From Candidatus Omnitrophota bacterium (GTDB lineage Bacteria; Omnitrophota; Gorgyraeia; Gygaellales; Profunditerraquicolaceae): a DNA stretch of 64,000 nucleotides. The notes under the pieces were generated by a model that was not told where the DNA came from, did not search any database, and saw only the letters and a list, made by a program, of their open reading frames with translations. Positions 5,160-23,021 of this stretch are shown piece by piece; the first letter of the stretch is position 1, and the number at the start of each line of letters is the position of its first letter. The stretch lies in contig JAHFFR010000002.1 of NCBI GenBank assembly GCA_023247825.1, positions 4,972 through 68,971 of the forward strand. The letters run 5' to 3'. The position numbers were made by a program, and so were the translations under genes.

Positions 5160-6719
5160 TTAGTGCTTAAAATGCCGCACACCTGTTGTGACCATGGCAA
5201 TTTTATATTTATCGCAGGCGGCAATAATTTCCTGATCCGCGATAGAGCCTCCGGGCTGGATTATTGCCCCGGCCCCTGCTTTATGCGCCCAGATAATAGC
5301 GTCTGCTTTGGGAAAAAACGCATCTGAAGCCAGGCAGCAGCCCCGGCTAAGCTTGCCGGATTTATTTTTTGCGATCATTACCGAATCTACGCGGGACATC
5401 TGCCCTGCGCCAATACCCACAGTCCTGTTTCCACGGGCCAAAACTATGGCATTGGATTTTACATGCTTGGCGACTTTCCACGCGAAAATCAGGCTCTGCA
5501 TCTGCGCCTTGCTTGGCTTTTTCTTAGTCACTACCTTAAGGTTATTTTCATCCAAGGTCAACAGGTCTTTGCCTTGTAAAAGCATACCGCCGCTAACACG
5601 TTTAAACTCCGGCTCATCAACTATACTCAGATCATTTAATTCAAGCAGGCGCAAATTTTTCTTTTCTTTGAATAAATTTAATGCCTCTTTATCAAAACCG
5701 GGGGCGATAATACATTCCAGAAAACCGCTTTTAGCTATTAATTTTGCGGTTTTTAAATCCATATTTCTGTTTAATGCCACAATACCGCCGAATGCCGAAA
5801 GCTTATCCGTTTTCCAGGCATTTAAAAATGCTTTCCCTAATTCCTTGTCCTGTGAAACACCGCAGGGGTTATTATGTTTGAGGATCACTGCGGCCGGATC
5901 CTGAAACTCCTTAACCAATTCAACCGCGGAATTAAGATCAAGGATATTATTAAAAGAAAGCCCCTTGCCTTGCAGTTGTTTTAAATTAGCCAGGCCGGAG
6001 GATTTACCTTTTTCTCTGTAGAAAGCCCCCTTTTGATGAGGGTTCTCGCCGTAACGTAAATCCTGTATTTTCTTAAAATTTAAGGCCAGTTCGTCGGGAA
6101 AACTTGATACCCCCGGCCCGGCAGCTGGGGCTTGTTTATTTAAATACCCATAGATTGCCGCGTCATATTTACTGGTATGGCCGTAAACCTCGATACCTAA
6201 CTGGCGCATTAAATCACCTGATAAGGCGCCGTTATTCTTTTTTAACTCGGCAATCACCTGGGGATAACGGCTGGGATTACAAATTACCGCGACCGACTGG
6301 TAATTTTTAGCAGCTGAGCGCAGCATAGATGGCCCGCCGATATCAATATTCTCAATAATTTCTTCGATAGTTACCCCGGGCTTACGCGCAGTTTTTTCAA
6401 AAGGATATAAGTTAACTATAACCATATCGATGAGGCCGATATTCTGCTCATCCAAAGTGCGCATATGTTCGGGGTTTTTTCGCAGCGCAAGCAGTCCGGC
6501 GTGGATCTTAGGGTGCAGGGTTTTTACCCTTCCGTCGAGTATTTCGGGAAATCCCGTGTATGCTGAGACTTCGGTTACAGCAATATTATTTTCGCGCAGC
6601 AGTTTTGCCGTGCCGCCCGTAGAAATAATCTCTACGCCGAAATTCTCTAATTCTCTGGCTAATTCTATAATACCGGTTTTATCCGATAAGCTGATAAGCG
6701 CGCGCTTAATCTTAACCAT
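5160..6719 (-). CDS. purH: Bifunctional AICAR transformylase / IMP cyclohydrolase
   Basis: N-terminal MGS-like KRALISLSDKTG...STGGTAK, full-length 519 aa, C-terminus TGVRHFKH. Confidence 0.95.
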   Translation of the reverse strand: MVKIKRALISLSDKTGIIELARELENFGVEIISTGGTAKLLRENNIAVTEVSAYTGFPEILDGRVKTLHPKIHAGLLALRKNPEHMRTLDEQNIGLIDMVIVNLYPFEKTARKPGVTIEEIIENIDIGGPSMLRSAAKNYQSVAVICNPSRYPQVIAELKKNNGALSGDLMRQLGIEVYGHTSKYDAAIYGYLNKQAPAAGPGVSSFPDELALNFKKIQDLRYGENPHQKGAFYREKGKSSGLANLKQLQGKGLSFNNILDLNSAVELVKEFQDPAAVILKHNNPCGVSQDKELGKAFLNAWKTDKLSAFGGIVALNRNMDLKTAKLIAKSGFLECIIAPGFDKEALNLFKEKKNLRLLELNDLSIVDEPEFKRVSGGMLLQGKDLLTLDENNLKVVTKKKPSKAQMQSLIFAWKVAKHVKSNAIVLARGNRTVGIGAGQMSRVDSVMIAKNKSGKLSRGCCLASDAFFPKADAIIWAHKAGAGAIIQPGGSIADQEIIAACDKYKIAMVTTGVRHFKH

Positions 6720-7420
6720 TACTTATTAAAGCGGAAGTTAACCAAATCCGCGTCTTGCATTATATAATCCTTTTGCTCAAGGCGCATCAAGCCCGCCTGT
6801 TTGGCGCCGGTTTCCCCGCCGTGCGAAATAAAATCGGCAAAACTTATAATTTCGGCGCGGATAAAACCCTGCTGTATATCAGAGTGGATAGCCCCGGCTG
6901 CAACCCAGGCGGTAGTGCCTTTCTTAATTAACCAGGCGCGGTTCTCTTTGTCCCCTACGGTAAGGAAACTGATAAAGCCGCTTTCTGCCAAAACCCTGGC
7001 TAACAAAACACCCATATTTTCCAATTCTTCTTTATTTATTACAATCACCGGCTTGAGAGTAAGCAAACCGTATCCGGAAACAACCTCTTTTTCCTGATCA
7101 GTTAACCCGATGGCTGAAATAAAATCTTCTTTTTCTAAAACTGACTTCATTTTATCTAATATTATTTTTTCTTTATCTTGGGGGGCTTTAGCAAGGCGGG
7201 TTTCCACAAAATCCAAATCGCGCAGGATAAGATCGGTTTTAGCGTCCTTTGGAATAATTATGATATCCGCATCAAGGGCAGCATCCTCTGATACTAATTC
7301 CACCTGGGGATAAGTCTTCTTCTTGGCTTTGACCAATTTATCTGCCTGATCAAGCTTATCATTCTTTACGTTCTGTTTACCCGGAATGATCTCAGGTATT
7401 GCAAACGCGCTTATTTTCAT
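6719..7420 (-). CDS. YchF-like protein lacking the P-loop G domain (DUF933/TGS-like C-terminus only)
   Basis: The C-terminus RAWLIKKGTTAWVAAGAIHSDIQQGFIRAEIISFADF...GLMRLEQKDYIMQDADLVNFRFN matches the YchF C-terminal domain. No GxxxxGKS/T motif occurs anywhere in the 233 aa. Confidence 0.7.
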   Translation of the reverse strand: MKISAFAIPEIIPGKQNVKNDKLDQADKLVKAKKKTYPQVELVSEDAALDADIIIIPKDAKTDLILRDLDFVETRLAKAPQDKEKIILDKMKSVLEKEDFISAIGLTDQEKEVVSGYGLLTLKPVIVINKEELENMGVLLARVLAESGFISFLTVGDKENRAWLIKKGTTAWVAAGAIHSDIQQGFIRAEIISFADFISHGGETGAKQAGLMRLEQKDYIMQDADLVNFRFNK

Positions 7421-7430
7421 ATGAGTAGTA

Positions 7431-7485
7431 GGGGACAGCGACTATTTTTTAGTAATATCTTCGGTAAAAAATAGTCGCTGTCCCC
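7431..7485 (-). terminator. 20-bp perfect inverted repeat hairpin between kamA and the YchF-like gene
   Basis: GGGGACAGCGACTATTTTTT (7431-7450) pairs perfectly with AAAAAATAGTCGCTGTCCCC (7466-7485), with a 15-nt loop. The A/T runs sit inside the stem rather than after it. Confidence 0.5.
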
Positions 7486-7491: not shown

Positions 7492-8679
7492 CTATTCTAG
7501 GTAGGTGTAAATCTTGCCCTTGTAGTTACGCAATACATATTTACCCTTGGCCTGGGAAAGGATATAATTCGGGCCTACGGGAATTTTTCCGCCGCCGCCC
7601 GGTCCGTCGATAACGTAGGTCGGAACGGCATAACCGGAGGTATGCCCGCGTAATTTTTCAATAATATTTATCCCGACAGCTACAGGGGTGCGGAAATGCT
7701 GCGTGCCCCTGACCGGATCGCACTGGTAAATATAATACGGCCTTACCCTTATCTGCAGAAGGTCATGCATCAACCGCCTCATAATAAATGGCCGGTCATT
7801 GATGCCTTTAAGAAGCACCGACTGGCTGCCTAAAGGTATGCCGCCTTCAGAGAGCATATCACAGGCGTTCTTGCAGCGCTTAGTAACTTCCTTGGGATGA
7901 TTAAAGTGGATACTCATCCAGACGGGTGAATATTTTTTCAGCATGTTTACCAGGTTTTCAGTAATACGCTGCGGTAAAGTTGCCGGGACACGCGTGCCTA
8001 TCCTTAACAATTCAATATGCGATATATCGCGGATTTTCGCAATTAAAGATTCCAGGGCACCATCTTCTAAGGTAAGCGGGTCTCCTCCTGAAATCAACAC
8101 ATCCCTGATTTTACGGTTGGCCTTGATATATTCTAAAGCCGCGTCAAATTTGGTCTCGGGATTTAATTCCTTCTCCTCATGGTCGCCGACTAAGCGCCGG
8201 CGGGTGCAATGCCGGCAATACATCGCGCAATGCTCCGTGGCCAATAACAAAACCCTGTCCGGATACCGGTGCACTAAATGCGGCGCCGGAGAATCGCGTT
8301 CTTCGGCGCAAGGGTCGGCCATTTCATGAGGAGAAATAGAAAATTCATAGTTAACCGGGACAGACTGCCTTCTTATCGGGCATTCCGGATCATCGGCATC
8401 AATCAGGCTTGCCCAATAAGGGGTAATTGCCATCGCCAGCCTGCCTTTGGCTTTATCGATCCCCTTCTCCTCTTCAGGAGTAAGTTTAATGATTTGAGCC
8501 AATTCTTCCTTGGTGCGTATCCTGTGTTTGAGCTGCCAATGCCAATCCTCCCAATCCAGCGGATTGACATCTTTAAAAAGAGGGATCTGCTGATAATCGC
8601 GCAAGCGCTTTGAAGGCCGCGGAATAGGCAATGTTTCAATTTGCGCTTTTTGATTCTCCAAGCTTACAGGATTGCTCAA
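7492..8679 (-). CDS. KamA-family radical SAM aminomutase (lysine 2,3-aminomutase-like)
   Basis: Radical-SAM CAMYCRHCTRR, GGDPL, YQCDPVRGTQHFRTP and YVIDGPGGGGKIP. Both Asp positions that I recall as lysine-contacting in clostridial LAM are retained. Confidence 0.85.
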   Translation of the reverse strand: MSNPVSLENQKAQIETLPIPRPSKRLRDYQQIPLFKDVNPLDWEDWHWQLKHRIRTKEELAQIIKLTPEEEKGIDKAKGRLAMAITPYWASLIDADDPECPIRRQSVPVNYEFSISPHEMADPCAEERDSPAPHLVHRYPDRVLLLATEHCAMYCRHCTRRRLVGDHEEKELNPETKFDAALEYIKANRKIRDVLISGGDPLTLEDGALESLIAKIRDISHIELLRIGTRVPATLPQRITENLVNMLKKYSPVWMSIHFNHPKEVTKRCKNACDMLSEGGIPLGSQSVLLKGINDRPFIMRRLMHDLLQIRVRPYYIYQCDPVRGTQHFRTPVAVGINIIEKLRGHTSGYAVPTYVIDGPGGGGKIPVGPNYILSQAKGKYVLRNYKGKIYTYLE

Positions 8680-8680
8680 T

Positions 8681-9679
8681 TTAAGCCTTCTTCCTTTCTG
8701 AGGCGCTCATTAGTATGGCCTCGATAAGATCTTCATATTTCATCCCCGCGGCATATGCCATTATGGGAAAATTAGATTCTTTGGGGTCTAATCCCGGTAA
8801 AGGATTGATCTCTAAAACATAAGGCACATTAAATTTATCCAAACGGATATCGGTGCGCGAAATATCCAGGCAACCCATCGCCCGATGCGTGCGTAAAGCC
8901 ACATCTTTTACTTTTGCCTCTATTTCCTTATCCAGCCTTGCCGGGCAATAAAATTCAGGGACTAGCCCTAATTCCCTGTTGCCCTGGAACTCCTTCATTT
9001 TCCAGGAGTAAAAATACTCCCCGCTTTTTTCACAGTTAGAAAAATCTATTTCCAAAATCGGCAGCACCCGGGTTTTACCGTTTTCTAAAATACCTACCGT
9101 CAGTTCTTTGCCCTCGATAAACTCCTCGACTAAGGCCTCCTGGTGATAAACATTTATACATTCTCTGACCTTTTTAAAAAGGTCGTCTTCATTATCGACC
9201 ACATTTGTCTTATTTATCCCTTTTGCCGAGCCTTCGCAATTGGGCTTAACAATTAAAGGGAACTTAAGCCCCGCGGCTAACGGCTCATCGCCTTTTACAA
9301 AAAGCTGAAAAGCGGGAGTAGGGATATTTTCTGCTTTTAATATTTTTTTGGTCAGCGCCTTGTTTAATGCCAGGGCAAGAGAGAATGTGTCTGAGCCGGT
9401 GTAAGGTATATTTAAATAATCCAGCACCGCCGGCACTTCGGATTCGCGGAAGCGGCCGTGTTTTCCCTCGGCGATATTAAAAACCATATCTACGCGGTTT
9501 TTCCTGAAATATGAAAATAAGGCCGGATACTCTACATCAATCGCATCCACAGAATGCCCCTTGGTTTTAAGCGCCGAGATAACGGAATTAATCGTTTCCT
9601 GCGAATCGCATTCGGAGAAATAATCCGCCGGCTTTAGAGGGTCCTTCTTTTTTAAATTGTAGGTAAGCGCGACCCTCAT
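8681..9679 (-). CDS. ATP-grasp ligase, D-alanine--D-alanine ligase-like (paralog 2)
   Basis: PLIVKPNCEGSAKGI, EEFIEGKELTVGIL and YVLEINPLPGL are ATP-grasp motifs. One nt separates it from kamA. Confidence 0.75.
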   Translation of the reverse strand: MRVALTYNLKKKDPLKPADYFSECDSQETINSVISALKTKGHSVDAIDVEYPALFSYFRKNRVDMVFNIAEGKHGRFRESEVPAVLDYLNIPYTGSDTFSLALALNKALTKKILKAENIPTPAFQLFVKGDEPLAAGLKFPLIVKPNCEGSAKGINKTNVVDNEDDLFKKVRECINVYHQEALVEEFIEGKELTVGILENGKTRVLPILEIDFSNCEKSGEYFYSWKMKEFQGNRELGLVPEFYCPARLDKEIEAKVKDVALRTHRAMGCLDISRTDIRLDKFNVPYVLEINPLPGLDPKESNFPIMAYAAGMKYEDLIEAILMSASERKKA

Positions 9680-10669
9680 TTAATTTAATCCGTTCCTTAT
9701 AATAGCGCTGTTTAAAATCTTGCCCACCATCTGTTCATAGGTAATGCCGATATTTTTAGCTATTAACATAAAAACATCTTCGGTAGATAAAGAAGGCAGC
9801 GGGTTTATTTCCAAAACATAAGGATTGCCGTCATTATCAACCCTAAAATCCACCCTGCCAAAATCCCGGCATTCGACACCGCGATAAACTTTTAAAGCCA
9901 GCTCATCCAGCTTTTTCCTCAGTTCCTGCGATATCTTGGCCGGGCAGATATATTCCAGCCTATCTGAGGTAATCCGCGCAAAGGTATAAAATTTATCATT
10001 TAACTTTAATTTCCCGTCTATTTTTATCTGCACGACCGGCATGATCTCGGGGTTCTGGTTGCCCACAATAGCTACTGTAAATTCCTGGCCCGAGATAAAT
10101 TCCTCGACTAAAGCCGGCTGCTTATAAGTTTTGGTAATAAAATCAACCTGCTTTTTTAGTTCTTCGGTATTTTCTACGCGCGAGCTTTCACTTAAGCCTT
10201 TTGACGAACCTTCAAAACGCGGCTTGACAATTAATGGAAATTTACAATGGTCCTGATTGATCAGGGCATCGACGGATGGGACTTCAAAAAACTTAGGGGT
10301 GGGAATTTTTTCGGCGATAAAAATCTTTTTGGCCATGACCTTATCCAAAGTAAGCCCCAAAGTCAAAGCATCCGCCCCTACAAAAGGGACTCCTGCCATT
10401 TCAAGTAAAATGGGGACCTGGGATTCGCGGTTTCTTCCGGTAAGGCCTTCGGAAATATTAAAAACAATGTCTACCCCCAGATTATCAATTTTGTCCAATA
10501 AATTTAAGGCGTTGCCGATTTTCTTTACCTTAAAGCCGTTTGCCGTGATAGCGTCGGCAATGACATTAATCGTTGAAGGGGCGTCGAATTCCGCATTAGC
10601 ATCAAGGGGATCCCCTTCTTTAAATTTATAATCTGTCTTTAAATCGTATGTTAAACCTACGGTTTTCAT
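9680..10669 (-). CDS. ATP-grasp ligase, D-alanine--D-alanine ligase-like (paralog 1)
   Basis: PLIVKPRFEGSSKGL, EEFISGQEFTVAIV, YVLEINPLPSL. Abuts paralog 2 with no gap. Confidence 0.75.
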   Translation of the reverse strand: MKTVGLTYDLKTDYKFKEGDPLDANAEFDAPSTINVIADAITANGFKVKKIGNALNLLDKIDNLGVDIVFNISEGLTGRNRESQVPILLEMAGVPFVGADALTLGLTLDKVMAKKIFIAEKIPTPKFFEVPSVDALINQDHCKFPLIVKPRFEGSSKGLSESSRVENTEELKKQVDFITKTYKQPALVEEFISGQEFTVAIVGNQNPEIMPVVQIKIDGKLKLNDKFYTFARITSDRLEYICPAKISQELRKKLDELALKVYRGVECRDFGRVDFRVDNDGNPYVLEINPLPSLSTEDVFMLIAKNIGITYEQMVGKILNSAIIRNGLN

Positions 10670-10697: not shown

Positions 10698-10742
10698 TAA
10701 AAAAATAAGGGCCATGTTTAAATTACTTCGCCATGAGCCCTT
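10698..10742 (-). terminator. Intrinsic-terminator-like hairpin plus U7 tract inside the leader of the ATP-grasp/kamA operon (candidate attenuator)
   Basis: Minus strand reads AAGGGC(U)CAUG, 15-nt loop, CAUGGCCCUU, then AUUUUUUU. That is a 10-bp stem with one bulge, lying between the predicted promoter and the ATG at 10669. Confidence 0.45.
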
Positions 10743-10819
10743 AAGAATCTATCCAATTTTTTCCAACTTAGTTTATAATCCTCCGAAAATTTACGCAAAA
10801 TCTTTCTATCTATATTATT

Positions 10820-10848
10820 TTTTTACCACAATATACCGGCGTTGTCAA
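10820..10848 (-). promoter_or_regulatory. Sigma70-like promoter (TTGACA, 17 nt, TAAAAA with upstream TG)
   Basis: On the minus strand, TTGACA is at 10848-10843 and TGgTAAAAA ends at 10820. Confidence 0.4.
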
Positions 10849-10865
10849 GTATTTTGATTCCCCCG

Positions 10866-10917: not shown

Positions 10918-11559
10918 CTAAATTCTGTTTTCCTCGTCGGAAAAGATTATTCCCGCGCTTTGAATATCGCCCATTAATTGCTCAAAACTGGCAAACACGC
11001 GGCCGCAAATGCCCTGGGAATTGGCAGACTCCACTAATTCTGGCCGGTCATCGGTATAAAATATCTCCTGCGGGCTGACTTTAAGCTCCTGGATAACTTT
11101 TTTGTAGATTTCTTTATCCGGTTTAATTAACCCGAGCTCAAAGGAGAGAAAAATTTTATCAAAAACCCCGAATACCGGGAAATTCTTCTTTAAATACTCA
11201 TAGTGCAGGGTATTTATGTTAGACAGCAGGGCCGTTTTATAGTTGGCGCGCAAAGTATTAAGCAGCCTGTAAACCAAGCGGTTCTTGGGGGTTAAGAAAA
11301 ATATATCATTCCAAATCGGCACAAATGAATTGAAGCTTAACTTTAAATCCAGCATATCCTTAACCTGAAGATAAAAATCTTCCGGGGGAATTTTGCCCGC
11401 TTCAAAGGCAATTGTTGCCTGCGATTCAAAAAAAAGATCATATATTTGGCGCGGGGTTTTCGAGCAAAAGCCCGACATTCTAACTGCCGCCCTCTTGTGA
11501 TCAAAATCTACCAGGACCCTTCCTAAATCAAACAGGATAACTTTTATTTCGCAAGCCAT
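10918..11559 (-). CDS. HAD-superfamily hydrolase (subfamily IA-like)
   Basis: Motif I ILFDLGRVLVDFD, motif II LLSN, and a C-terminal DD in FYTDDRPE. Confidence 0.8.
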   Translation of the reverse strand: MACEIKVILFDLGRVLVDFDHKRAAVRMSGFCSKTPRQIYDLFFESQATIAFEAGKIPPEDFYLQVKDMLDLKLSFNSFVPIWNDIFFLTPKNRLVYRLLNTLRANYKTALLSNINTLHYEYLKKNFPVFGVFDKIFLSFELGLIKPDKEIYKKVIQELKVSPQEIFYTDDRPELVESANSQGICGRVFASFEQLMGDIQSAGIIFSDEENRI

Positions 11560-11561
11560 GA

Positions 11562-12533
11562 TTAATTTCCCTTGTCCTTATTTTTCCTGAAGAGATCCAA
11601 AAACCTGTCTTCATATTCTTTGTAAACATTCCACTTATCCAGCTCTGCCTTTAGTTCCGTTGCCTTGGCAATATTAACGCTGCTTTCCTGGAAAAGCCTT
11701 TCAATTTTTTCTTTTACGGAAGCAGGTAATTTTGTAAGCTGGCCCAGGGTTTTCTTGATCAGTTCCACCTCCTCCTCGCCGATCGGCGCGGATTGACCGG
11801 GCGGCCCGAGCTTCAAATATTCCAATAATTTATTAATTTCATTCTCCATCCGGCTCGCCTGCTCTTTTAACGGCTGTAAATTTATTTGCATCTCCAATAT
11901 TTTTCCAAAGGCCTCCAGCACCGCGCAAGAGGCTTTTGGGTTTTCAATCTGGATAGTATAAAGGGGGATTTCCCCGAGCAGGCAAAACCCCTTTAACCCG
12001 GCTTTCTTGGCCATGCCCAAAAACAAACCGTTCATTCCGCTAATCTGGCCATCCTGCAACAGGTTAAAATTAAATTTCGCCAAGCTCTCTTTTATTTTTT
12101 GATCTGTGGCTGCAAACCAAACCGCCGATTCCTGGGTATGATCGGTTGCCTGAGGCATGGAAGCAAAACTTACAATTAACTCTACTCCTAAATCTCCGGC
12201 CAACCCGATAATTATCTTCGCGTAGCTATCCGCCTTGGATAAATCCGGCTGGGCATTGCTTAAGAAAATAATCAGGTCGTTTTTACCGGTTTTATTTTTC
12301 CAATAATAAAATTTACCCTGGGGAAGAAGCGGGGCATCCAATATTCCCGACGAGATAACGCTTCCGGTCAGATAAAAAAATTCTTCCGGGGCGATCTCGG
12401 CAAACTCAACCGCCTTTAACTCATTAATTAAATACTTCGCCGCATTTGCCGCTACCTCTCCCATACCCGGCCAGGCGACAATAAGATAAGGCTTTTTAAG
12501 CCGCGGTTTTTTAGAAATTATCAATGATCCCAT
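11562..12533 (-). CDS. PAC2 (proteasome-assembly-chaperone-like) family protein with coiled-coil tail
   Basis: The N-terminal PYLIVAWPGMGEVAANAAKYLINELKA pattern resembles PAC2-family proteins. Assigned from memory of the family. Confidence 0.55.
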   Translation of the reverse strand: MGSLIISKKPRLKKPYLIVAWPGMGEVAANAAKYLINELKAVEFAEIAPEEFFYLTGSVISSGILDAPLLPQGKFYYWKNKTGKNDLIIFLSNAQPDLSKADSYAKIIIGLAGDLGVELIVSFASMPQATDHTQESAVWFAATDQKIKESLAKFNFNLLQDGQISGMNGLFLGMAKKAGLKGFCLLGEIPLYTIQIENPKASCAVLEAFGKILEMQINLQPLKEQASRMENEINKLLEYLKLGPPGQSAPIGEEEVELIKKTLGQLTKLPASVKEKIERLFQESSVNIAKATELKAELDKWNVYKEYEDRFLDLFRKNKDKGN

Positions 12534-13666
12534 ATTCCCCCCTTAAATTTATATTTTTTTAAAAATTCCACCAAAACCCTTGCGCCATTATACAAATTAT
12601 CCAAAGACGCGTATTCATCGGCGATATGCGCGCAGCCCTCTGTGCCAAACCCGGTGGCAATTGCCGGTATGCCCACGTTTTTAAAAAAAGTTATTACCGT
12701 TGCGCCTTCCGAGCCGCTGATACGCGGTTTGATCTTTAAGCTTCTGGCCGCCGAAGCCAAGCTGTTCACCAAAGGATGGCACGGATTAATGTAATACGGA
12801 TTTTGAATCCCCTGGATTTCAATCTTAAAATTATCGGTATATTTAGCGATCGTTTTCCTCAAATTGCTTAATAATTCTTTCTCGGATGAGCCGGGCAAGA
12901 ACCTGAAATCCAGTTCAAACTCACACCAATCGCTGACCACATTCACCTTGTCTCCCCCCTTAATCGTGCCGACATTTATTGTGGGCCGGCGCAAATATTT
13001 ATTTTTAGGGAATATTTTATTTTGTTTTTTAAGATCGACGATTATTTTAGCCGCGATATCTATGGCATTTTTTCCTAACCAGGGATAGGCGCCGTGCGCT
13101 TTTTTCCCGCGAATTCGCACCTTTAAATGCATCAGGCCTTTTTGTGTAATTACAATTTCAAAATCATCCGCATCCAGGATAAGGGCGGCATCTGCTTTTA
13201 AAATTTTGCGCTTAAGCAGGGGTATTAAGCCTAAGCTTGAGCCGCTTTCTTCATCAGCGGTGGCGGCAAAAACCAAATTATAATCGAGTTTAGCGCCGTC
13301 TTCAACTATTGAATTAACCGCTTCTAAGGCACTCGCCAGGTTCCCCTTACAATCTGTCGCCCCTAAACCATAAATTTTATCTCCGATAATTTTAGCGCAA
13401 AAAGGTCCGGTCTTCCAGTTTTCGCCGGCCGGAACAGTGTCCAGATGCGGGGTAATAAGAAGGAATTTACCGCGTTTCCTTCCCCTAAGAGTTGCGACAA
13501 CATTTTCTCTTTTATTGCTGAATGCGTATGTTTTAACTTCAAGGCCCAGGCCCGATAGATACGCCCTGACAAAATCAGAGATCGCCTTTTCATCGCCGGG
13601 CGGATTCTGAGAGTCAATGGAAATTAATTTTTTAATGGTTTTTATTAAACGTTTTTTATTGACCAT
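12521..13666 (-). CDS. M20-family metallopeptidase (ArgE/DapE-like deacylase)
   Basis: HLDTVPAG, ADEESGS and the dimerisation-domain pattern. Start moved to the internal MVNKKRLIKTIKKLISIDS, because the upstream 33 codons overlap the preceding gene. Confidence 0.8.
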   Translation of the reverse strand: MVNKKRLIKTIKKLISIDSQNPPGDEKAISDFVRAYLSGLGLEVKTYAFSNKRENVVATLRGRKRGKFLLITPHLDTVPAGENWKTGPFCAKIIGDKIYGLGATDCKGNLASALEAVNSIVEDGAKLDYNLVFAATADEESGSSLGLIPLLKRKILKADAALILDADDFEIVITQKGLMHLKVRIRGKKAHGAYPWLGKNAIDIAAKIIVDLKKQNKIFPKNKYLRRPTINVGTIKGGDKVNVVSDWCEFELDFRFLPGSSEKELLSNLRKTIAKYTDNFKIEIQGIQNPYYINPCHPLVNSLASAARSLKIKPRISGSEGATVITFFKNVGIPAIATGFGTEGCAHIADEYASLDNLYNGARVLVEFLKKYKFKGGIWDH

Positions 13667-14294
13667 CCAGCGGACATGCCTCGCATTTGGGGTCCTGCTT
13701 ACGGCAGTAATCCTTGCCCAACTTGACCAAAAGGGCGTGATACTCGTTAAATAACTTCGCATCAACTTTAAGATTGCGCATAAAAATATCCTGCACGCTG
13801 GAATAATCGGCGCCTTCTTTAATTAATCCGTGCCGAAAAAGTATCCTTTTGGTGTAGGCATCGACGACAAATATGGGTTTATCCAGGGCGTAAAGTAAAA
13901 TAGAATCCGCGGTTTCCTGCCCGATACCGTTTACCTCAAGCAATTGTTTGCGCAAAACCGCTAAATCAACGGCGGCAATAGTTTTAATACTGGCGGCATA
14001 ATTATCAAAGAAAAATTTAAGAAAATTTTTAAGCCGGGCGGCTTTAATATTATAATACCCTGCGCTTTTAATTAAAAAAGCCAGTTTCCTCGGGGCCAGT
14101 TTATAGAGCTTGCCTGCGCCTAAGAGCTTTTTTTCTTTAAGGGCCGCCAGTGCCTTTTCTACGTTTGCCCAACTGGTATTCTGGGTAAGAATTGCCCCAA
14201 CCATTACTTCAAAAGCAGACTCAGCAGGCCACCAATGCTGTTGGCCAAAAGCAGAATAAAGGCGCTGAAAAATACGGTTTAACTTGCGCTTCAT
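13656..14294 (-). CDS. Endonuclease III-like HhH-GPD domain protein
   Basis: HhH motif LLEVNGIGQETADSILLYAL, catalytic-region VDAYTKR, and a C-terminal Cys cluster CRKQDPKCEACPL. Confidence 0.8.
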   Translation of the reverse strand: MKRKLNRIFQRLYSAFGQQHWWPAESAFEVMVGAILTQNTSWANVEKALAALKEKKLLGAGKLYKLAPRKLAFLIKSAGYYNIKAARLKNFLKFFFDNYAASIKTIAAVDLAVLRKQLLEVNGIGQETADSILLYALDKPIFVVDAYTKRILFRHGLIKEGADYSSVQDIFMRNLKVDAKLFNEYHALLVKLGKDYCRKQDPKCEACPLDGQ

Positions 14295-16228
14295 TCTTTA
14301 AGTTCTAACGGATTAAAACCATAATAGGCAAAAAGAGTATACGCTGTTCCGGAGACCGAGCCTGTATGGCTTCCCTTGGGGGTCATCCAGCCATGCCCCG
14401 TATCCACGTGCTCCTGGGTGGCATAAGGAAGGCAGCCTTCCCCCTGGCCCGACGGCGATGAACTGGAGATAATCATATTGCCCAATTCGCTTAAATACAT
14501 TTCCGCTTTTTTCTTATAATTATCCGCTTTGGGCGTATCGCCTTTTTTGGCATAAAAATCTTCCATAATTTTATAAGATACGATCATCTGCGCAGTCCAC
14601 TCCGAAGAGACTACCCCTCCTCTTGCTGCGTGCTGCTGCGGCGCAAAATCAAATCCTTTTATTTTTACTCCCCGGTTATTTGGCCGCAGGAAATTTACCT
14701 CGGCGCTGCAATTCTCCTCGACAAACTCCAGGATCTTATCCGGGTCCATGCCCAACTCTTGCAGCTTCTGCGGCCCGATAGCGGCAATTGACCATGCATA
14801 AGTATCTGTGGCAATAGTGGAATCGCCTTTGCCGCGCTTAACCGGTAAATCCTGCCGGTTATAGGTATTCTCGACGATCCAATTGACTGCTTTTTGGGCA
14901 GCCTGAAAATATATTTTTTCCCCCGTAACCCTGGCTAACATATTGAAAAACGCGTAAGCATCAAGATTGTGCTCCGTAGAATACCATTCAACCTGCGGCC
15001 CGCCGACTATACCGCCATCGGCGTCTTTATTTTGAATTTTGATAATCGTAGAAGCAATACTTTGTGCTAAATCCAGATAGCTTCTATCCTGGGTTTTTTG
15101 CATATACTGCATAACGGCAAGACCTACCCAGATATTCGGGCCGCTATGCATTATAAACTCCGCCGGGCCGCCGTCAGAGACATAATAGGCATTAAGAAAC
15201 CAGCCGTCTTCTCTTTTTGCCTGATGGGCAAAAAAATCCAGGATTTTCTTTGCGCGGCCAAAATCTTCAAACTGCGTATAAGCCTGGATGAGTAAAGCCA
15301 AATCATAAGTAAACGCCCAGCTGGCAATATCTTTATCCCCTTCGAAACTCGCTACCAAACCGGTGCGCTTATTTTGGTGGATCTTAAGCCACTGGTACAT
15401 CTTGTCAAAATTAGCCTTCTCTAGAGCTATCTTTTTCTCATCCAGCCGGGATAATTCTCTGCTGGCAATGTTTTCATTACGTAAAACTGCTGCCAGCTCT
15501 TCTTCTAAAACAGCTTTCTCTTTTGTTAAACCGGCAATCAAATCATTGAGCTGTTTAATCTGGCTTAAATCGCCTGTTTCTATTTTTTCTTTTTGGGATT
15601 CAAAAGATTTTATACGTTCCTCTAAGATTTTCAATTTTGACTGAAAATCCTGGCGCTCAACAATAAGCTCTTCCGTTTTTTGCTTAGTTAAATTTGAATC
15701 TCTTAATACAATGGCTAGCTTTTCGATAAGAAGCTTATTGCCGCGCGTTAACTTAAGGTTCGCGTAACTGTTAATGCCTAAAATTAAAGCCAAAAATACA
15801 ACCAGCGATAAAGCTACCGGGACAAAAAGCCTTTTAAACCAGGCATAGCGCATTAATTTGACATTTTTTCCTGCGGAAATCTGATCGTAATTTAAACCGA
15901 TTAAATACCTGCGGTTATCCCCCAGGACGTCCCTGACCCAGACAACGCTTGCCCGCGCAGGAATAGGCTTTCTGCTGATCGGGATATCAATTTCCAAGGA
16001 TAGCTTAAACTTTTTTTCATTGAGCAGTTTAAGTAATTGGGGGTCGGGATTATTTATAGAAAGGCAGATGCCGCCGCGGCTGACGTTATTAGTAAAACCC
16101 TGCAGCCAACTGGACAGAAAAATCTTCCCGTCCAGAGTTTCAAGGCGGAACTGCACCGGAAACACCGTATCCAGGCGCAGGTATTTTCTTTGCTCTATCG
16201 GATGTTCTTTTTTATTTTTTAACCCCAT
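14291..16228 (-). CDS. PilZ-domain protein with TM segment, coiled coil and C-terminal alpha/alpha-toroid-like domain
   Basis: N-terminal QRKYLRL...FPVQF...GFTNNVSRGGI (PilZ RxxxR / DxSxxG-type pattern). Hydrophobic VPVALSLVVFLALILGI, then heptad-rich KLKILEERIKSFESQKEKIE. The C-terminal helical repeats are Trp/Tyr-rich (AFTYDLALLIQAY..., NIWVGLAVMQY..., NLDAYAFFNML...). Confidence 0.65.
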   Translation of the reverse strand: MGLKNKKEHPIEQRKYLRLDTVFPVQFRLETLDGKIFLSSWLQGFTNNVSRGGICLSINNPDPQLLKLLNEKKFKLSLEIDIPISRKPIPARASVVWVRDVLGDNRRYLIGLNYDQISAGKNVKLMRYAWFKRLFVPVALSLVVFLALILGINSYANLKLTRGNKLLIEKLAIVLRDSNLTKQKTEELIVERQDFQSKLKILEERIKSFESQKEKIETGDLSQIKQLNDLIAGLTKEKAVLEEELAAVLRNENIASRELSRLDEKKIALEKANFDKMYQWLKIHQNKRTGLVASFEGDKDIASWAFTYDLALLIQAYTQFEDFGRAKKILDFFAHQAKREDGWFLNAYYVSDGGPAEFIMHSGPNIWVGLAVMQYMQKTQDRSYLDLAQSIASTIIKIQNKDADGGIVGGPQVEWYSTEHNLDAYAFFNMLARVTGEKIYFQAAQKAVNWIVENTYNRQDLPVKRGKGDSTIATDTYAWSIAAIGPQKLQELGMDPDKILEFVEENCSAEVNFLRPNNRGVKIKGFDFAPQQHAARGGVVSSEWTAQMIVSYKIMEDFYAKKGDTPKADNYKKKAEMYLSELGNMIISSSSPSGQGEGCLPYATQEHVDTGHGWMTPKGSHTGSVSGTAYTLFAYYGFNPLELKE

Positions 16229-16686: not shown

Positions 16687-17277
16687 TCAAGGTTTGTGTC
16701 TAAAAGCAAAGAGGCCAGAGAAATTGGCAAGATCGGTAATGCCTTTTTCCTGGCAGATAATTTTAAACTTGGTAAAAACTTCCCAGGTCATTTCGACGTC
16801 GGCCAAAGCCCGGTGCTGCTGCGCTGATTTGACTTCCAGCTTCTGCGCGACAAACCAAAGCGCATAACGCGCCAAATCCGGCATAAGAATTCTCGCCATA
16901 GCCAGCACATCAAAAACAATAATATTATTAATTACGGGTAAACCAATTAACTTAAGCTCGTTATTTAAAAAGTTCAGGTCAAATTCCGCATTATATGAAC
17001 AAAGGCAGCTGCCTTTAATAAAATCTAAAAATTTTGGCATTACTGCCTCTACGCGCGGGGCCCCTTTTAACATCTCCGGAGTAATCTTATTTACGGCAAA
17101 AGCTCCCGGAGAAATCTCTCTCCCCGGATTAATCAGTTCATCAAATACGGCTAGCCTTTGTTTACCCTTAACCTTCAAGGCAGCCAACTCCACTATGCGG
17201 TCACCTTCCTCGGGCTTTAAACCGGTGGTCTCGGTATCGAATATAGTAATTTCTATTTCATCGATATGCTCAGGCAT
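16687..17277 (-). CDS. DnaQ-like 3'-5' exonuclease (DNA polymerase III epsilon family)
   Basis: ExoI FDTETTGL, ExoII SYNAEFDLNFL, ExoIII HRALADVEMT. Confidence 0.85.
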   Translation of the reverse strand: MPEHIDEIEITIFDTETTGLKPEEGDRIVELAALKVKGKQRLAVFDELINPGREISPGAFAVNKITPEMLKGAPRVEAVMPKFLDFIKGSCLCSYNAEFDLNFLNNELKLIGLPVINNIIVFDVLAMARILMPDLARYALWFVAQKLEVKSAQQHRALADVEMTWEVFTKFKIICQEKGITDLANFSGLFAFRHKP

Positions 17278-18160
17278 CTCTGGTTACAACATAAGCCGGG
17301 ATTAACCGGGCAGGTTTATAAGAAAGCTTGGTTTTCCGTAAATTCTCCAGGCCCGAATCATCCATAATATTAATATACTTATAATCTTTCAGCTCCTGGC
17401 TAAACTTGCGGAAAATAAATTGGGCCAGCCCTTTAATAGAAAGGTCGGTTATCTCATAAAGTATACAGAAAGTATCATCATTTAATTTATAACCGAAACT
17501 GAATGCTTTGATTTTTTTATTCCCACTGACCACCACTCCTTCTAAATTTAACTGTTTATAATTAGCTAACGCATCTTTGATTACTTTGCGGCTGTCTTCA
17601 AGCATGCCGCAGTAGATATCGCCGCTACTCTGCGTTTTGCGCTGCTTTACCCAAGAATTAAATAAATCCAGGCAGCCGGCACTATCCGGCAGCCTCAATT
17701 GGCGCCAATCAAAATCATAATGCTTGATAAAATAATTATAGGAAGCGCGCTGGGATTTAAATTTATTCCCCCCAAGGCCGGCTAAATCATCCCTTAAGCA
17801 AAGGTAATCCGGATATTTTTCATGGGCCAGATACCCCAGGGCACGGTAATAATCTAAATCCTCCTGCTCGATATTTTCAATGCGTGAGATATCCTTGTTT
17901 TTATTAATCTTATCCATAATCGCAAATGCCTCTTTTATAACCTTAGGCCGGCGTTCTTTTGCCAGCGGCGGAAGATACATAAATGAGCCGATCTTGTCTT
18001 GAAAAAATACACAAAGGCTATTTTCAATTACCTGCCATTTAATATCATAAAGAGCCCGCCAGATGTAAATATTAGCAAAAGAGAATACCGCCAATTCATG
18101 AGGCGATAGGATCAGGTATTTGTTAAATAGCTTCCGGTCTTTTAAGGTTAATTTCCGCAA
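17270..18160 (-). CDS. DUF2156-like protein (resembles the C-terminal domain of lysyl-phosphatidylglycerol synthase, GNAT-like fold)
   Basis: N-terminal LTLKDRKLFNKYL...ELAVFSFANIYIWR pattern and ~296 aa size, assigned from memory of the family. Confidence 0.55.
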   Translation of the reverse strand: MRKLTLKDRKLFNKYLILSPHELAVFSFANIYIWRALYDIKWQVIENSLCVFFQDKIGSFMYLPPLAKERRPKVIKEAFAIMDKINKNKDISRIENIEQEDLDYYRALGYLAHEKYPDYLCLRDDLAGLGGNKFKSQRASYNYFIKHYDFDWRQLRLPDSAGCLDLFNSWVKQRKTQSSGDIYCGMLEDSRKVIKDALANYKQLNLEGVVVSGNKKIKAFSFGYKLNDDTFCILYEITDLSIKGLAQFIFRKFSQELKDYKYINIMDDSGLENLRKTKLSYKPARLIPAYVVTRDA

Positions 18161-18635
18161 CTTCTCTCACCTCTTCATAGGCTTGGATAATCCGGGGATT
18201 GCCCTTAAGCATCTTTAGCTGTTTCGGGGAATTAAGGTAACCGGCCAGATAAGCAATATAATCTTTGGCCTCCTGAGTATTTATTTTTTCATAAACATAC
18301 GGGCAATTCAGATCAACGGTCAGGAGCACTTTGCCTTTGCGCAAATTAATCAAAAAAGGATAGAGCCGGCATTCAAACGGCCGAATATCGTAAATTTTGC
18401 ATTTGTTATCCTGAATCTCCAAATACGGGCAAACAAAGCCTGCGCCATCAGGATTGGCAACCGGGCAAATGCGGCGGTTGATTGAAATCGAAGCAACGGG
18501 TATATCTTTTTTATCCAGCAACTCCTGGATCTCTTCGTCCAAAAGGCAGGGGCTCCATACGGAATCTGCTTCTTTAAACCGGCAGCAACCCTTGCATTTT
18601 ATACAAAACTCCGACGGAACGAATTGCTTGATCAT
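18123..18635 (-). CDS. YkgJ-family cysteine-cluster protein
   Basis: FCIKCKGCCRF CxxCxxCC cluster plus downstream Cys (CPYL, CKIY, CRLYPF). Confidence 0.7.
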   Translation of the reverse strand: MIKQFVPSEFCIKCKGCCRFKEADSVWSPCLLDEEIQELLDKKDIPVASISINRRICPVANPDGAGFVCPYLEIQDNKCKIYDIRPFECRLYPFLINLRKGKVLLTVDLNCPYVYEKINTQEAKDYIAYLAGYLNSPKQLKMLKGNPRIIQAYEEVREVAEINLKRPEAI

Positions 18636-18952
18636 TTAACAATGCTCCCGGGTTTTAATCTTTTATCCGGGCTGATTACCGCAAGCAGGCTTTCATCCGA
18701 ACCTGCCAGAATCATCCCCTGGCTTTCCACCCCGCGCAGGATTACCGGATCTAAATTATCAATTAAAACTACCTGCCTGCCCAGGAGCTCTTCTTTGGAG
18801 TAAAAATTTTTAATTCCCGCGACTACCTGCTTTTGCCTGTCGCCTAAATCTAGAATTAAAACTAATAATTTGTCGGCGTTCGGATGGTCATTAACTTCCT
18901 TTATTTGGGCTATCCTAAACTCTAACTTCCTGAAATCATCAATTGTTGCCAT
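18632..18952 (-). CDS. tRNA-binding domain protein (CsaA / MetRS beta-domain-like)
   Basis: 106 aa with HPNADKLLVLILDLGDRQKQVVAGI...VLRGVESQGMILA, the EMAP/CsaA OB-fold pattern. Confidence 0.75.
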   Translation of the reverse strand: MATIDDFRKLEFRIAQIKEVNDHPNADKLLVLILDLGDRQKQVVAGIKNFYSKEELLGRQVVLIDNLDPVILRGVESQGMILAGSDESLLAVISPDKRLKPGSIVK

Positions 18953-20769: not shown

Positions 20770-21228
20770 TTATGCTCCGGAGAGTTTCCCCAGAATAATC
20801 AGGGTAAACACCATGACTAAAATGGCTACGGTCTCGGCCATGCCCAACACTGCCAGATAATTTCCAAAACCTTTGCCGGTTTCACCCATCGCATCGCAGG
20901 CGCAGGCAGAGCACCTGCCTTGGAAATAAGCTGAAAGGCCTATGGCCGCGCCGCTTAGTGCCCCGATCCCCCAAAGATAATGCCCCTGATTAGCCAGCTC
21001 AACCATCTTGGTCATAACAATATTCCCATAGAGCGTCTGCGTAAGCGGCGCGGCAACTAAAGCCACCAGCAAAAATGAAGCGTTTTTATTTTGATTAAAG
21101 TTCTTCTTCCATGCGCCGATTGCCGCCATCCCGGCTACTCCGGCCCCTGCGCCGGAACCCAAAGCTGAAAGCCCCAACACTAACCCTAACCCCAAATCCT
21201 TAAACTGCATCAAAGCTCCGGTTTCCAT
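20770..21228 (-). CDS. V-type ATPase subunit K (proteolipid)
   Basis: 152 aa, four Gly/Ala-rich hydrophobic helices (GSGAGAGVAGMAAIG...), last gene of the V-ATPase operon. Confidence 0.85.
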   Translation of the reverse strand: METGALMQFKDLGLGLVLGLSALGSGAGAGVAGMAAIGAWKKNFNQNKNASFLLVALVAAPLTQTLYGNIVMTKMVELANQGHYLWGIGALSGAAIGLSAYFQGRCSACACDAMGETGKGFGNYLAVLGMAETVAILVMVFTLIILGKLSGA

Positions 21229-21248
21229 ATTGCTCTCCTTATATAATA

Positions 21249-23021
21249 TTATTTTTCTTTCTTAGAAAACGGTTTATACTCAAACCCGCTCCAGGAAACA
21301 TTGGCGTGGCTGCAAAATTCCAAAACATTAAGCCGCACGCCGTGCACCAATACAGACATTGGGCCTAAAATAAAATTCAAGGTATGCCCGGCGATCAAAA
21401 TCAATACGCAACTGATAATTGCCCCGGCATCTTTGGCGCCTCCACCGGCTGCCATCACATTAAAAGCATCGGCAATTGCAACCCCGGCAAGGCCCACTGC
21501 AAAAAGGCGCACGTAAGAAACAACATCTGTAAAATTATTTACCAGGCCTAAAGCAATCGCCGCCAGGCCTTCACCTATGCCTTTTAAGATGTTTTTCTGC
21601 GGACTGGTAAATAAAATTACCAAGCTTATCCCGCCATAGATTAACCACTTGCCAAATAGCGGAAACGGATCACCCAAGAGCAAATTCTTAGCCAGAAAAA
21701 AAGCCGCCCAGATTATACTGATCCAGCCTAAATCTGCTAACGCTATCAGCGCCGGAAGCTTAAGAGCCAGCCTCCAGGAATGCGCGATACTCAGGTGTAT
21801 TGCGCCTATTAAAAAACATAAAGCCTGGACAAAAAAGATATTGTTAAGCAACGGCACCAATGGCTTTATTCCCAGGTGCGCAAGCCATGCCTGGCCAAAA
21901 AATGTTCCCGAAATAACCCCCCATATAATAGCGCAAGAACTTAAGACATAAAAGAGAAAAATTGCCGTTTTGTCTTTGATCTTTTTGCCCATTTTTTTAT
22001 CTACGATAAAAGTAATAATAAGATACAGCAGCCCATACCCGGCATCACCAATAATTATGCCAAAAAATAAACTAAAAAATATAAGAAACAGCGGGCTGAT
22101 ATCCAATTCATTATACCCGGGCACAATTTCAAGCAGCTTTAATACCGGCCGGATAAGCTTAACCCAAGCCGGATTACGCACCAAGGTCGGCACGGCATCA
22201 TCTGCTCCGGGCGTAACTGTCAAAATTCCCCAATCATTGATTTTTGCCTGCTTCACCAGCATTTTCTCGGCATCTACCGGAACATACCCTTTCAAATAAA
22301 CAAGCTCCTCTGCCCGGCCCATGCCTTTTAAAACACTATAAAAATCTTTCTGGCTTAAAAAAGAATTTTCGGCGGAAATAAGCTCGTTTTGAAAAACGAG
22401 GTGCCCGGCAATCTCTTCTCTTATCTCCTGCATAATTTTTGCATCTTCGCTAATCCTATTCTGCATCTGGGACAATGATAATTTAGGCAATTCTATTTCT
22501 TTAAACCCGAGTTCGATATTACCCAGGCTTGCCGCCAAGCAATTTACCGCCCCATCTTCTGGAGAAATTTCTTTTAATACTATCTCATGCGCAAGGCCCT
22601 TAATTTTATCTTTGGGAATCTGATATAACCTTATAAACACATTTTCTTGCTGCAGGGCTTTTATCTGGGCGGGGTCAAAATCCCCCCAGTGCTCCCAAAG
22701 GTCTATGCCGCTATGCAAAGAGACGGAAAACTCCCTAAGCTGGTCATATCTTTTTTGCAAGTCAATAATATGACGGCATACAGTAATCCAGTCTTCCGGC
22801 GCATGGGCTATTTTTGCCGGCTGTTTCGGGCTTACCTGCGCCAAAACAGTACGGGCAGCTTCAATTAAATTTAGTTTTTCATTGATTTCATTAAGCTCAA
22901 TGCCCGCGGGGACATTCTCATGCTCAACATGCACTATGCCCAATTCACGCAAGCGCTCTAAGGCAGCCGGGCCGCTGTCATTATGCATCAGCAAAAAAAC
23001 TTTTTTCATAGCTACGATCAT
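21249..23021 (-). CDS. V-type ATPase subunit I (a-subunit homolog)
   Basis: 590 aa with a soluble N-terminal half and a multi-TM C-terminal half (SYVRLFAVGLAG, HGVRLNVLEF). Operon position is between D and K. Confidence 0.85.
   Translation of the reverse strand: MIVAMKKVFLLMHNDSGPAALERLRELGIVHVEHENVPAGIELNEINEKLNLIEAARTVLAQVSPKQPAKIAHAPEDWITVCRHIIDLQKRYDQLREFSVSLHSGIDLWEHWGDFDPAQIKALQQENVFIRLYQIPKDKIKGLAHEIVLKEISPEDGAVNCLAASLGNIELGFKEIELPKLSLSQMQNRISEDAKIMQEIREEIAGHLVFQNELISAENSFLSQKDFYSVLKGMGRAEELVYLKGYVPVDAEKMLVKQAKINDWGILTVTPGADDAVPTLVRNPAWVKLIRPVLKLLEIVPGYNELDISPLFLIFFSLFFGIIIGDAGYGLLYLIITFIVDKKMGKKIKDKTAIFLFYVLSSCAIIWGVISGTFFGQAWLAHLGIKPLVPLLNNIFFVQALCFLIGAIHLSIAHSWRLALKLPALIALADLGWISIIWAAFFLAKNLLLGDPFPLFGKWLIYGGISLVILFTSPQKNILKGIGEGLAAIALGLVNNFTDVVSYVRLFAVGLAGVAIADAFNVMAAGGGAKDAGAIISCVLILIAGHTLNFILGPMSVLVHGVRLNVLEFCSHANVSWSGFEYKPFSKKEK

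Follow-up and report, generated by a model that had tools for sequence, protein, structure and literature searches.

The subject of this analysis is a stretch of 64,000 nucleotides from a Candidatus Omnitrophota bacterium (assembly GCA_023247825.1, contig JAHFFR010000002.1), called the window in the following, and therein three consecutive genes of the minus strand, which code for two ATP-grasp ligases with the fold of D-alanine-D-alanine ligase (Ddl), referred to as G1 and G2, and for an aminomutase of the KamA family. We consider it probable that these genes constitute one operon for the synthesis of a small β-lysine-containing peptide. In the proposed pathway, KamA would use a [4Fe-4S] cluster, S-adenosylmethionine (SAM) and pyridoxal phosphate (PLP) to move the α-amino group of L-lysine to C3, yielding β-lysine. 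G1 and G2 would each phosphorylate a carboxylate with ATP, and the attack of an amine on the acyl-phosphate would then lead to one amide bond each. The expected product is a small β-lysine peptide of the cytoplasm: a dipeptide that is lengthened by one residue to a tripeptide, or else an oligomer of low length. Production of β-lysine followed by two ligation steps had been suggested in an initial annotation of the locus and is now the best-supported hypothesis: the aminomutase scores best as an AblA-type lysine 2,3-aminomutase, ahead of glutamate 2,3-aminomutase and EpmB, the ligases are not bona fide Ddl enzymes, and the gene cluster is conserved beyond this genome.

A short aminomutase and two Ddl-fold ligases in a putative operon

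According to the list of open reading frames (ORFs), the genes are transcribed in the order G1, G2 and kamA. G1, the first gene of the operon (9680..10669, minus strand), starts with ATG and codes for a Ddl-fold ATP-grasp ligase of 329 amino acids (PF07478, E 5e-40), followed by the gene for its paralogue G2 (8681..9679, minus strand), which also starts with ATG and codes for a ligase of the same fold with 332 amino acids (PF07478, E 4e-35). The kamA gene (7492..8679, minus strand) starts with TTG and codes for a short radical-SAM/PLP aminomutase of 395 amino acids with matches to LAM_C and Radical_SAM. The G1/G2 junction reads AAT TAA/ATG AGG with a gap of 0 nt, the G2/kamA junction reads GCT TAA A TTG AGC with a gap of 1 nt, and both have a purine-rich stretch upstream that resembles a ribosome binding site. 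The initial annotation was exact in its coordinates, gap lengths, gene order and family assignments, as seen from the ORF list, the junction sequences and Pfam. The spacer 5' of G1 is 248 nt long, with a hairpin that follows the HAD gene and then a promoter, and a 20-bp perfect inverted repeat is located just past the kamA stop codon (7431..7485, minus strand; GGGGACAGCGACTATTTTTT-15 nt-AAAAAATAGTCGCTGTCCCC). This repeat is the probable end of the operon, although a function as terminator can only be presumed because it has no T-tail. Because of the promoter and leader upstream and the hairpin downstream, the three genes look like a self-contained transcription unit, as far as this can be read from the sequence.

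KamA aligned over its residues 32-395 with the lysine 2,3-aminomutase (LAM) of Clostridium subterminale (PDB 2A5H; E 9e-144), and all of the inspected catalytic and substrate-binding residues are kept (2A5H numbering). These are C125, C129 and C132 of the CxxxCxxC cluster motif, the PLP lysine K337, the carboxylate contact R134, and D293 and D330, which contact the ε-ammonium group in 2A5H. The alignment thus bears out the earlier remark that the lysine-contacting Asp residues are retained; in glutamate 2,3-aminomutase, these two Asp are replaced by Lys and Asn. The same seven residues are invariant in all 66 cluster-linked KamA homologues from other loci. What KamA lacks compared to clostridial LAM is the C-terminal domain and the inter-subunit zinc site formed by C268 and three C-terminal Cys: position 268, a zinc ligand Cys in the clostridial enzyme, is occupied by Arg, and the chain ends at LAM residue 367 of 416. 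Only 3 of the 66 cluster-linked homologues carry a Cys at position 268.

Among the NCBIfam models, the AblA-type LAM (TIGR03820) gave the highest score with KamA (522.9 bits, cut-off 525.4), ahead of glutamate 2,3-aminomutase (469.9 bits, cut-off 650), arginine 2,3-aminomutase (416.8 bits, cut-off 600) and EpmB (248.4 bits, cut-off 369.3), and the general KamA family model TIGR00238 was matched with 356.3 bits (cut-off 199.2). The match to TIGR03820 spans profile positions 6-360 of 417, and we ascribe the shortfall of 2.5 bits to the early end of the chain at LAM residue 367, which leaves out the C-terminal region. A cluster-linked homologue from Bacillota (L075) is above this cut-off with 534.1 bits. 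Judged by these residues and scores, KamA is a member of a short subfamily without zinc site but with a lysine-type pocket, and lysine is its presumable substrate.

G1 and G2 share 39% identity (BLASTP, E 1e-70), and PF07478 (Dala_Dala_lig_C), PF13535 and PF02655 were all matched above the Pfam cut-offs. Although Ddl models and structures match them best and their public annotation is D-alanine-D-alanine ligase, both proteins stay below every curated Ddl cut-off, with 186.7 bits for G1 and 201.9 bits for G2 on model NF002378 (cut-off 243) and 161.4 and 164.1 bits, respectively, on TIGR01205 (cut-off 245.65). Solved Ddl structures are 24-30% identical to them. For G2, an AlphaFold model (pLDDT 95.5) has Ddl enzymes as its best PDB matches (TM 0.81, 24-29% identity), no solved structure being nearer to the model than Ddl, and the first sequence match of the ligases outside of Ddl is PDB 3VOT, an L-amino-acid ligase (E 7e-6). 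Comparing both sequences with E. coli DdlB, we found its residues for ATP, Mg and the transition state retained in both ligases (K97, K144, S150, E180, E187, R255, D257, E270 and N272). In the D-Ala site of DdlB (the E15/S150/Y216 triad, H63 and S281/L282), S150 is kept, but other positions have changed: H63 is replaced by Glu in both ligases, Y216 by Ile in G1 and Glu in G2, and S281/L282 by Asp/Val in G1 and Ser/Asn in G2, whereas E15 aligns to an Asp with a Glu two residues earlier. Compared to Ddl, the omega-loop is longer in G2 and shorter in G1. The catalytic set is invariant in five clades of the ligase family, and the exchange of H63 to Glu is universal in them. We conclude that both G1 and G2 are probably active ATP-grasp enzymes that form amide bonds, that their substrate pocket differs from the one in Ddl, and that neither should be a pseudo-enzyme partner of the other. 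It is speculation that a diamino substrate would be well accommodated by the invariant acidic replacement of H63 and an acidic AEFD motif.

Linkage of the aminomutase and the ligases in other lineages

Searching 1.84 billion representative proteins with G2 yielded 1207 representatives at E <= 1e-30, among them many tandem ligase-ligase fusions of 650-720 amino acids and two KamA-ligase fusions. When one genome per GTDB species was scanned, 80 loci emerged, and 54 of these together with two loci retrieved separately (L001 and L002) make up a set of 56 Omnitrophota-type loci. The order G1-G2-KamA is the same in 51 of these 56 loci, the other five being cut by contig ends, and the identity of G2 across the set ranges from 49 to 94%. 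Near-identical proteins and syntenic loci come from metagenome-assembled genomes (MAGs) of Candidatus Omnitrophota. The taxon labels were given by the submitters of the MAGs, and some are clearly imprecise: several syntenic MAGs are labelled uncultured Planctomycetales or Planctomycetia (L006, L015, L016, L019, L029, L032, L037-L041, L044, L047 and L054) and one Margulisiibacteriota (L014), but these loci are 50-89% identical to the Omnitrophota operon and fully syntenic, so that the labels look unreliable.

Outside of Omnitrophota, KamA adjoins a G-type ligase in 10 loci. The two genes are neighbours in Bathyarchaeia (L056, L062), an unclassified archaeon (L058), Chloroflexi/Anaerolineales (L060, L064, L081), Bacillota (L075) and Ignavibacteria (L078), they are fused in Methanosarcinales (L063), and a KamA-ligase fusion is accompanied by two more ligases in Nanoarchaeia (L067). 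The pairing was also observed in Nitrospirota and Deltaproteobacteria. A search with one fusion protein revealed at least 36 protein clusters that carry KamA and Dala_Dala_lig_C domains in one chain, including clusters from Deltaproteobacteria, Candidatus Magnetoovum and another Omnitrophota lineage, and G-G, G-GNAT and S51-G-KamA fusions occur as well. These repeated independent fusions are strong evidence that aminomutase and ligase share one pathway. In a rough neighbour-joining tree, supplemented by BLAST comparisons, the KamA-proximal or KamA-fused ligases of most phyla are orthologues of G2, whereas a G1-like domain is the one fused to KamA in Magnetoovum (L089), and a third, divergent ligase clade goes with an acetyltransferase of the GNAT family. 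Because of these G2-type and G1-like fusions and adjacencies, both window ligases have close relatives with a physical link to KamA. The initial annotation had left open whether the cluster extends beyond its genome; neighbourhoods across phyla and gene fusions now answer this in the affirmative.

The related loci also contain recurrent partner genes. A conserved GNAT family with 31-65% mutual identity is encoded beside the module in L064, L078, L081, L088 and L089 and fused to a ligase in L060, and a second GNAT type stands beside the module in L056. These GNATs matched RimI weakly, and no beta-lysine acetyltransferase family was among their profile matches. In these phyla, the GNAT would N-acetylate the product, and the lineage of the window without a GNAT would make the free-amine form. 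Profile matches of the genes next to the window operon confirmed the earlier statement that neither an acetyltransferase nor an EpmA-type gene is adjacent; for the acetyltransferase this is right for the window yet particular to its lineage, since most other phyla carry the module GNAT. The number of ligases rises to three per module in L083 and L067.

Peptidases of families S51 and S58 are further partners. A 944-aa triple fusion of Peptidase_S51, ATP-grasp ligase and KamA is encoded in L084 (6001-8835), and in its sister locus L085 (1024-5196), S51 is a gene of its own which, together with an AMP-binding-like gene of about 435 aa, flanks an ATP-grasp-KamA fusion. In Myxococcota and Bdellovibrionota, tandem-fused ligases of about 680-730 amino acids are followed by a Peptidase_S58 gene (L086 8001-11763, L087 8001-11227; the Myxococcota gene contexts were taken from the source gene calls). 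L086 belongs to the cultured species Anaeromyxobacter dehalogenans 2CP-1, where the fused ligase is annotated as D-alanine--D-alanine ligase, and in L080 an S58 gene lies next to a single ligase. Members of S58, which is the DmpA/BapA family, cleave N-terminal β-amino acids such as β-alanine (PMC9235088). Both families act on unusual N-terminal residues, and their presence beside relatives of the operon is in keeping with a peptide that is not only synthesised but also cleaved. Within the 64-kb window, no homologues of the module-associated GNAT, S51, S58 or EF-G-like genes were found.

Several associations were seen in single lineages. In another Omnitrophota lineage (L088, 6287-11812), a LysW-like zinc-ribbon protein of 61 amino acids is encoded, whose acidic tail has DD as its last residues and whose Pfam score of 29.4 bits exceeds the cut-off. 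It is followed by a KamA-ligase fusion, another ligase, a GNAT and a fourth ATP-grasp protein with weak similarity to RimK, which makes a carrier-protein-dependent variant possible in this lineage. A carrier protein as a general part of the module was rejected, because the LysW-like and RimK-like genes occur in L088 only and have no counterpart in the window or the other loci. In L090 (7001-10487), a KamA-ligase fusion overlaps the gene for an Orn/DAP/Arg decarboxylase by 23 nt, which hints at a ligase joining β-lysine to a polyamine-type amine in that lineage. The genes 3' of the module in L058 (455 aa) and L075 (442 aa) are homologous neither to each other nor to the window, and a weak MurL-like match was noted in L058. 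A transporter of the major facilitator superfamily (L063), a formiminotransferase, a CTP synthase and a decarboxylase were dismissed as conserved partners, each being seen once only.

Several observations weigh against a β-lysine peptide as the product of the window operon. In Myxococcota and Bdellovibrionota, no KamA is encoded within 8 kb of the paired ligases, and the ligase family thus extends beyond β-lysine. The activity and stereochemistry of KamA are assumed, because the AblA cut-off is missed by 2.5 bits and the zinc-site region is absent. The operon itself contains no GNAT, transporter or dedicated peptidase, and synteny within Omnitrophota is a weak functional signal, because the unrelated purH gene is as syntenic as an M20 deacylase gene near the operon. 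Finally, the MAGs come mostly from freshwater, groundwater and sediment, where there is no obvious need for an osmolyte. With these points in mind, we infer lysine as the substrate, the sequence of the reactions, the amino acid or acids joined to β-lysine and the role of the peptide in the cell; for the role, we have a weak preference for a compatible solute or for a metabolite rich in nitrogen that the cell makes and later hydrolyses again. An osmolyte, a cell-wall substituent and a secondary metabolite had been offered as choices before, and this choice is left standing except for a murein-specific role, which is argued against by the occurrence of the module in archaea.

Alternative explanations and related systems

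Instead of a small peptide, the ligases may build a cyanophycin-like or poly-β-lysine-type polyamide, one of them extending the backbone and the other branching or priming it. Two to three distinct ligases per module could divide such polymerisation steps, lysine-derived polymers are nitrogen-rich stores, and some relatives pair or fuse the KamA-ligase proteins with Peptidase_S51, the family of cyanophycinase and dipeptidase E. This family also includes plain dipeptidases, however, and its members are associated with distant module variants only, the window being devoid of them. Cyanophycin synthetase is a multidomain enzyme combining an ATP-grasp domain with Mur-ligase-like and primer-binding domains, whereas G1 and G2 are compact single Ddl-fold proteins of about 330 amino acids with no Mur-ligase-like or primer-binding domain. 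Since enzymes of this fold would close a lid over two small substrates, and since no granule-associated or export gene belongs to the operon, we regard a polymer as unlikely. The involvement of a KamA-type enzyme also raises the question of a protein as acceptor, with an ATP-grasp ligase attaching β-lysine to a translation factor or ribosomal protein in analogy to the β-lysylation of elongation factor P (EF-P), but independently of EpmA. EpmB is itself a short member of the KamA family that lacks the C-terminal domain of LAM, and in the EpmA/EpmB (PoxA/YjeK) system it likewise feeds β-lysine to an ATP-dependent amide-forming enzyme. That enzyme, EpmA, is a paralogue of class II aminoacyl-tRNA synthetases acting on a protein lysine, unlike the two Ddl-fold ATP-grasp ligases of the window with their small-molecule architecture, and KamA stays far below the EpmB cut-off and scores highest with AblA. 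It is suggestive that a 653-aa EF-G-like GTPase gene directly follows kamA, with a YchF-type gene behind it, in at least 22 Omnitrophota loci (e.g. L007, 10230-12191) and thereby in the majority of related species, and that the window itself encodes a 233-aa protein with the YchF C-terminal (DUF933) domain 72 nt past kamA (6719-7420, minus strand), the N-terminal region of which lacks a P-loop; a full-length YchF is found at the corresponding place in L040. The weak RimI matches of the module GNATs from other phyla and the modification of ribosomal proteins by the ATP-grasp enzyme RimK point in the same direction. The EF-G-like gene is absent from the window and its closest relatives, however, and a hairpin lies between kamA and the YchF-like gene. 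A single modification would hardly require two or three different active ligases per module, and the module occurs in Bathyarchaeia, Methanosarcinales and Nanoarchaeia, although to our knowledge archaea use the hypusine-type modification of aIF5A and not β-lysylation of EF-P. Taken together, a protein target is quite improbable.

Least of all do we expect ordinary cell-wall enzymes, i.e., G1 and G2 as divergent D-Ala-D-Ala or D-Ala-D-X ligases with KamA as an unrelated neighbour from lysine catabolism, which we hold to be very improbable. Besides the public annotation and the best matches to Ddl models and structures, this explanation can draw on the finding that the 64-kb window contains no other Ddl-like gene than G1 and G2. 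Ddl and VanA share with the window ligases the three-domain fold (TM 0.81), the same residues for ATP, Mg and acyl-phosphate and, as we suppose, the joining of two small amino-acid substrates through an acyl-phosphate. What separates them is the low identity of 24-30%, the missed cut-offs (186.7 and 201.9 against 243 bits), and the replacement of H63, Y216, S281 and L282 in the substrate site, with the exchange of H63 to Glu being invariant across the family, and the possibility, raised in the initial annotation, that the ligases could turn out to be genuine Ddl enzymes is thereby answered in the negative. In addition, the window ligases are partnered by KamA and not by mur or fts genes, ligases of their family are fused to it in many lineages, and the family is present in archaea without murein. 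None of the lysine-fermentation genes kamDE, kdd, kce and kal adjoins the operon, and neither does a gene resembling lysyl-tRNA synthetase or an efp gene, according to the profile matches of the neighbours.

The synthesis of a β-lysine peptide, which we prefer, has parallels in several characterised systems. AblA and AblB form the route to Nε-acetyl-β-lysine in methanogens and some bacteria, where this β-lysine derivative serves as a solute (PMC3543383, citing Pflueger et al. 2003). This route starts with the LAM AblA, whose model TIGR03820 is the best match of the window aminomutase, and β-lysine is then derivatised on an amino group, as may be the case with the module relatives of other phyla that carry a GNAT. 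Unlike it, the window contains two ATP-grasp ligases, no AblB and no adjacent GNAT, and its aminomutase lacks about 20 to 60 C-terminal residues as well as the zinc ligands. Carnosine synthase (ATPGD1/CARNS1) is an ATP-grasp enzyme which couples β-alanine to an α-amino acid with formation of ADP and Pi, and the carnosine-type product is hydrolysed by M20 and S58 (DmpA/BapA) peptidases (PMC9235088). The same two peptidase families are found near members of the KamA-ligase module, but carnosine synthase is a eukaryotic single ligase from another ATP-grasp clade without a co-encoded aminomutase. The Ngg/AsnO system produces the dipeptide osmolyte N-acetylglutaminylglutamine amide (NAGGN) from an operon that also encodes a peptidase, and Ngg combines the N-acetylation of an amino acid with the formation of a non-ribosomal peptide bond in one enzyme (PMC8070244). 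Related KamA-ligase loci similarly contain a GNAT and a ligase, fused once (L060), whereas Ngg/AsnO uses glutamine substrates and no aminomutase, and the window operon has neither a GNAT nor an amidotransferase. Finally, the bacterial L-amino-acid ligases (e.g. BL00235 and BacD/YwfE) are stand-alone ATP-grasp enzymes that form dipeptides from free amino acids, but they are far more distant from G1 and G2 than Ddl is, and we know of no L-amino-acid ligase that uses β-lysine.

Leader, neighbouring genes and implications

Upstream of G1, a sigma-70-like promoter (TTGACA, 17 nt spacer, TG-n-TAAAAA with the sequence TGgTAAAAA; 10820..10848, minus strand) was read from the sequence, which is kept in position and sequence in related Omnitrophota loci. 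A consensus scan had missed it because the -10 hexamer is a weak match. The promoter is followed by a leader mini-ORF 13 nt after a GGAGG motif (TTG GAA AAA ATT GGA TAG, M-E-K-I-G-stop; 10749..10766, minus strand) and by a terminator-like hairpin with a run of seven T about 30 nt before the G1 start codon (10699..10742, minus strand; AAGGGCTCATGG...CCATGGCCCTT ATTTTTTT). Promoter, GGAGG, mini-ORF and hairpin are conserved 5' of G1 in about 26 species, represented by the window (10699-10850) and loci L001, L003-L014, L017-L020, L023, L025-L028, L047, L052 and L055. The mini-ORF opens with TTG-(GAA/AAA/GGA)-AAA, and the peptide M-(E/K/G)-K-(I/L/P)-G, to which it corresponds where it continues, is conserved in about 20 species. 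Its glycine is encoded by each of the four possible codons and Ile codons are exchanged for Leu codons, as is typical of selection acting on a peptide. The mini-ORF can be as short as three codons or, in several species, run through the hairpin, and the stop codon is located 1-12 nt before the stem in most species and 19-21 nt before it in L011 and L026. Because of this spacing, a terminating ribosome could mask the 5' arm of the stem, whereas stalling at the Lys codon would leave this arm unmasked. The leader could therefore be a candidate for a leader-peptide attenuator with a lysine codon, mediating lysine-dependent antitermination, which would be sensible because the pathway consumes lysine. 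We also considered a known riboswitch and rejected it, as an Rfam scan with E values up to 10 gave noise only. As a single sequence the leader folds no better than shuffled versions (z = -0.31), and RNAalifold recovered the terminator stem as the sole consensus structure, with almost no covariation.

The operon is preceded by genes for a HAD phosphatase, a PAC2-family protein and an M20 deacylase of the ArgE/DapE family (10918-13765, minus strand) and followed by that of the YchF C-terminal-domain protein and then purH. The M20-PAC2-HAD block is found 0.2 to 5 kb from the operon with variable spacing in many but not all Omnitrophota loci. We set it aside as a pathway component, because it is syntenic in a part of the phylum only and purH is equally syntenic. 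A degradative link of the block is conceivable, as M20 enzymes include β-alanyl dipeptidases. A defence system was dismissed as well, since neither the three proteins nor their neighbours had a PADLOC match. Elsewhere on the minus strand of the window, a stand-alone LPG_synthase_C protein of 296 amino acids without membrane domain is encoded at 17270-18952, near a small tRNA_bind-domain protein and a CxxCxxCC protein; LPG_synthase_C is the aminoacyl-tRNA-dependent transferase fold of lysyl-phosphatidylglycerol synthase. Further genes on this strand code for a 645-aa protein with an N-terminal PilZ domain and a weak GH76-like region (14291-16228) and for the subunits of a V/A-type ATPase (about 20770-24931 and onward), of which c, I, D and a B/A-like subunit were identified, and a giant ORF of 2846 amino acids is located at 40699-49239.

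β-Lysine is familiar from the osmolyte N-acetyl-β-lysine, the modification of EF-P, lysine fermentation and some antibiotics made by non-ribosomal peptide synthetases (NRPS). In the literature, we found no characterised or explicitly predicted pathway of the composition described here; the amidoligase survey of Iyer et al. 2009, which is possibly relevant, was outside our reach. The enzyme families and the general logic of combining an amino-acid-modifying enzyme with ATP-grasp ligases are known, but the combination, its breadth and the fusions are not. In its widest form, our proposal is that KamA and paired Ddl-like ligases, with or without a GNAT, represent a widespread module of at least nine bacterial and archaeal lineages for a new class of β-lysine peptides, that these could be the long-sought natural substrates of S58 β-aminopeptidases and of some S51 and M20 enzymes, and that the Omnitrophota copy is switched by a lysine-sensing attenuator. 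We put this forward tentatively, since as a whole it is somewhat easier to doubt than to accept.

If true, the ligation of β-lysine independently of ribosomes and NRPS would represent a new type of natural β-peptide and provide a function for several thousand proteins annotated as 'D-alanine--D-alanine ligase'. The Ddl label is misleading when counts of ddl genes serve as evidence for peptidoglycan, as in uncultured phyla like Omnitrophota and in archaea. The association with S58 and S51 genes points to physiological substrates of β-aminopeptidases, which are enzymes used in biocatalysis, and the leader is a candidate for a new attenuator in a phylum without genetics. The gene fusions put the hypothesis within reach of two or three recombinant proteins.

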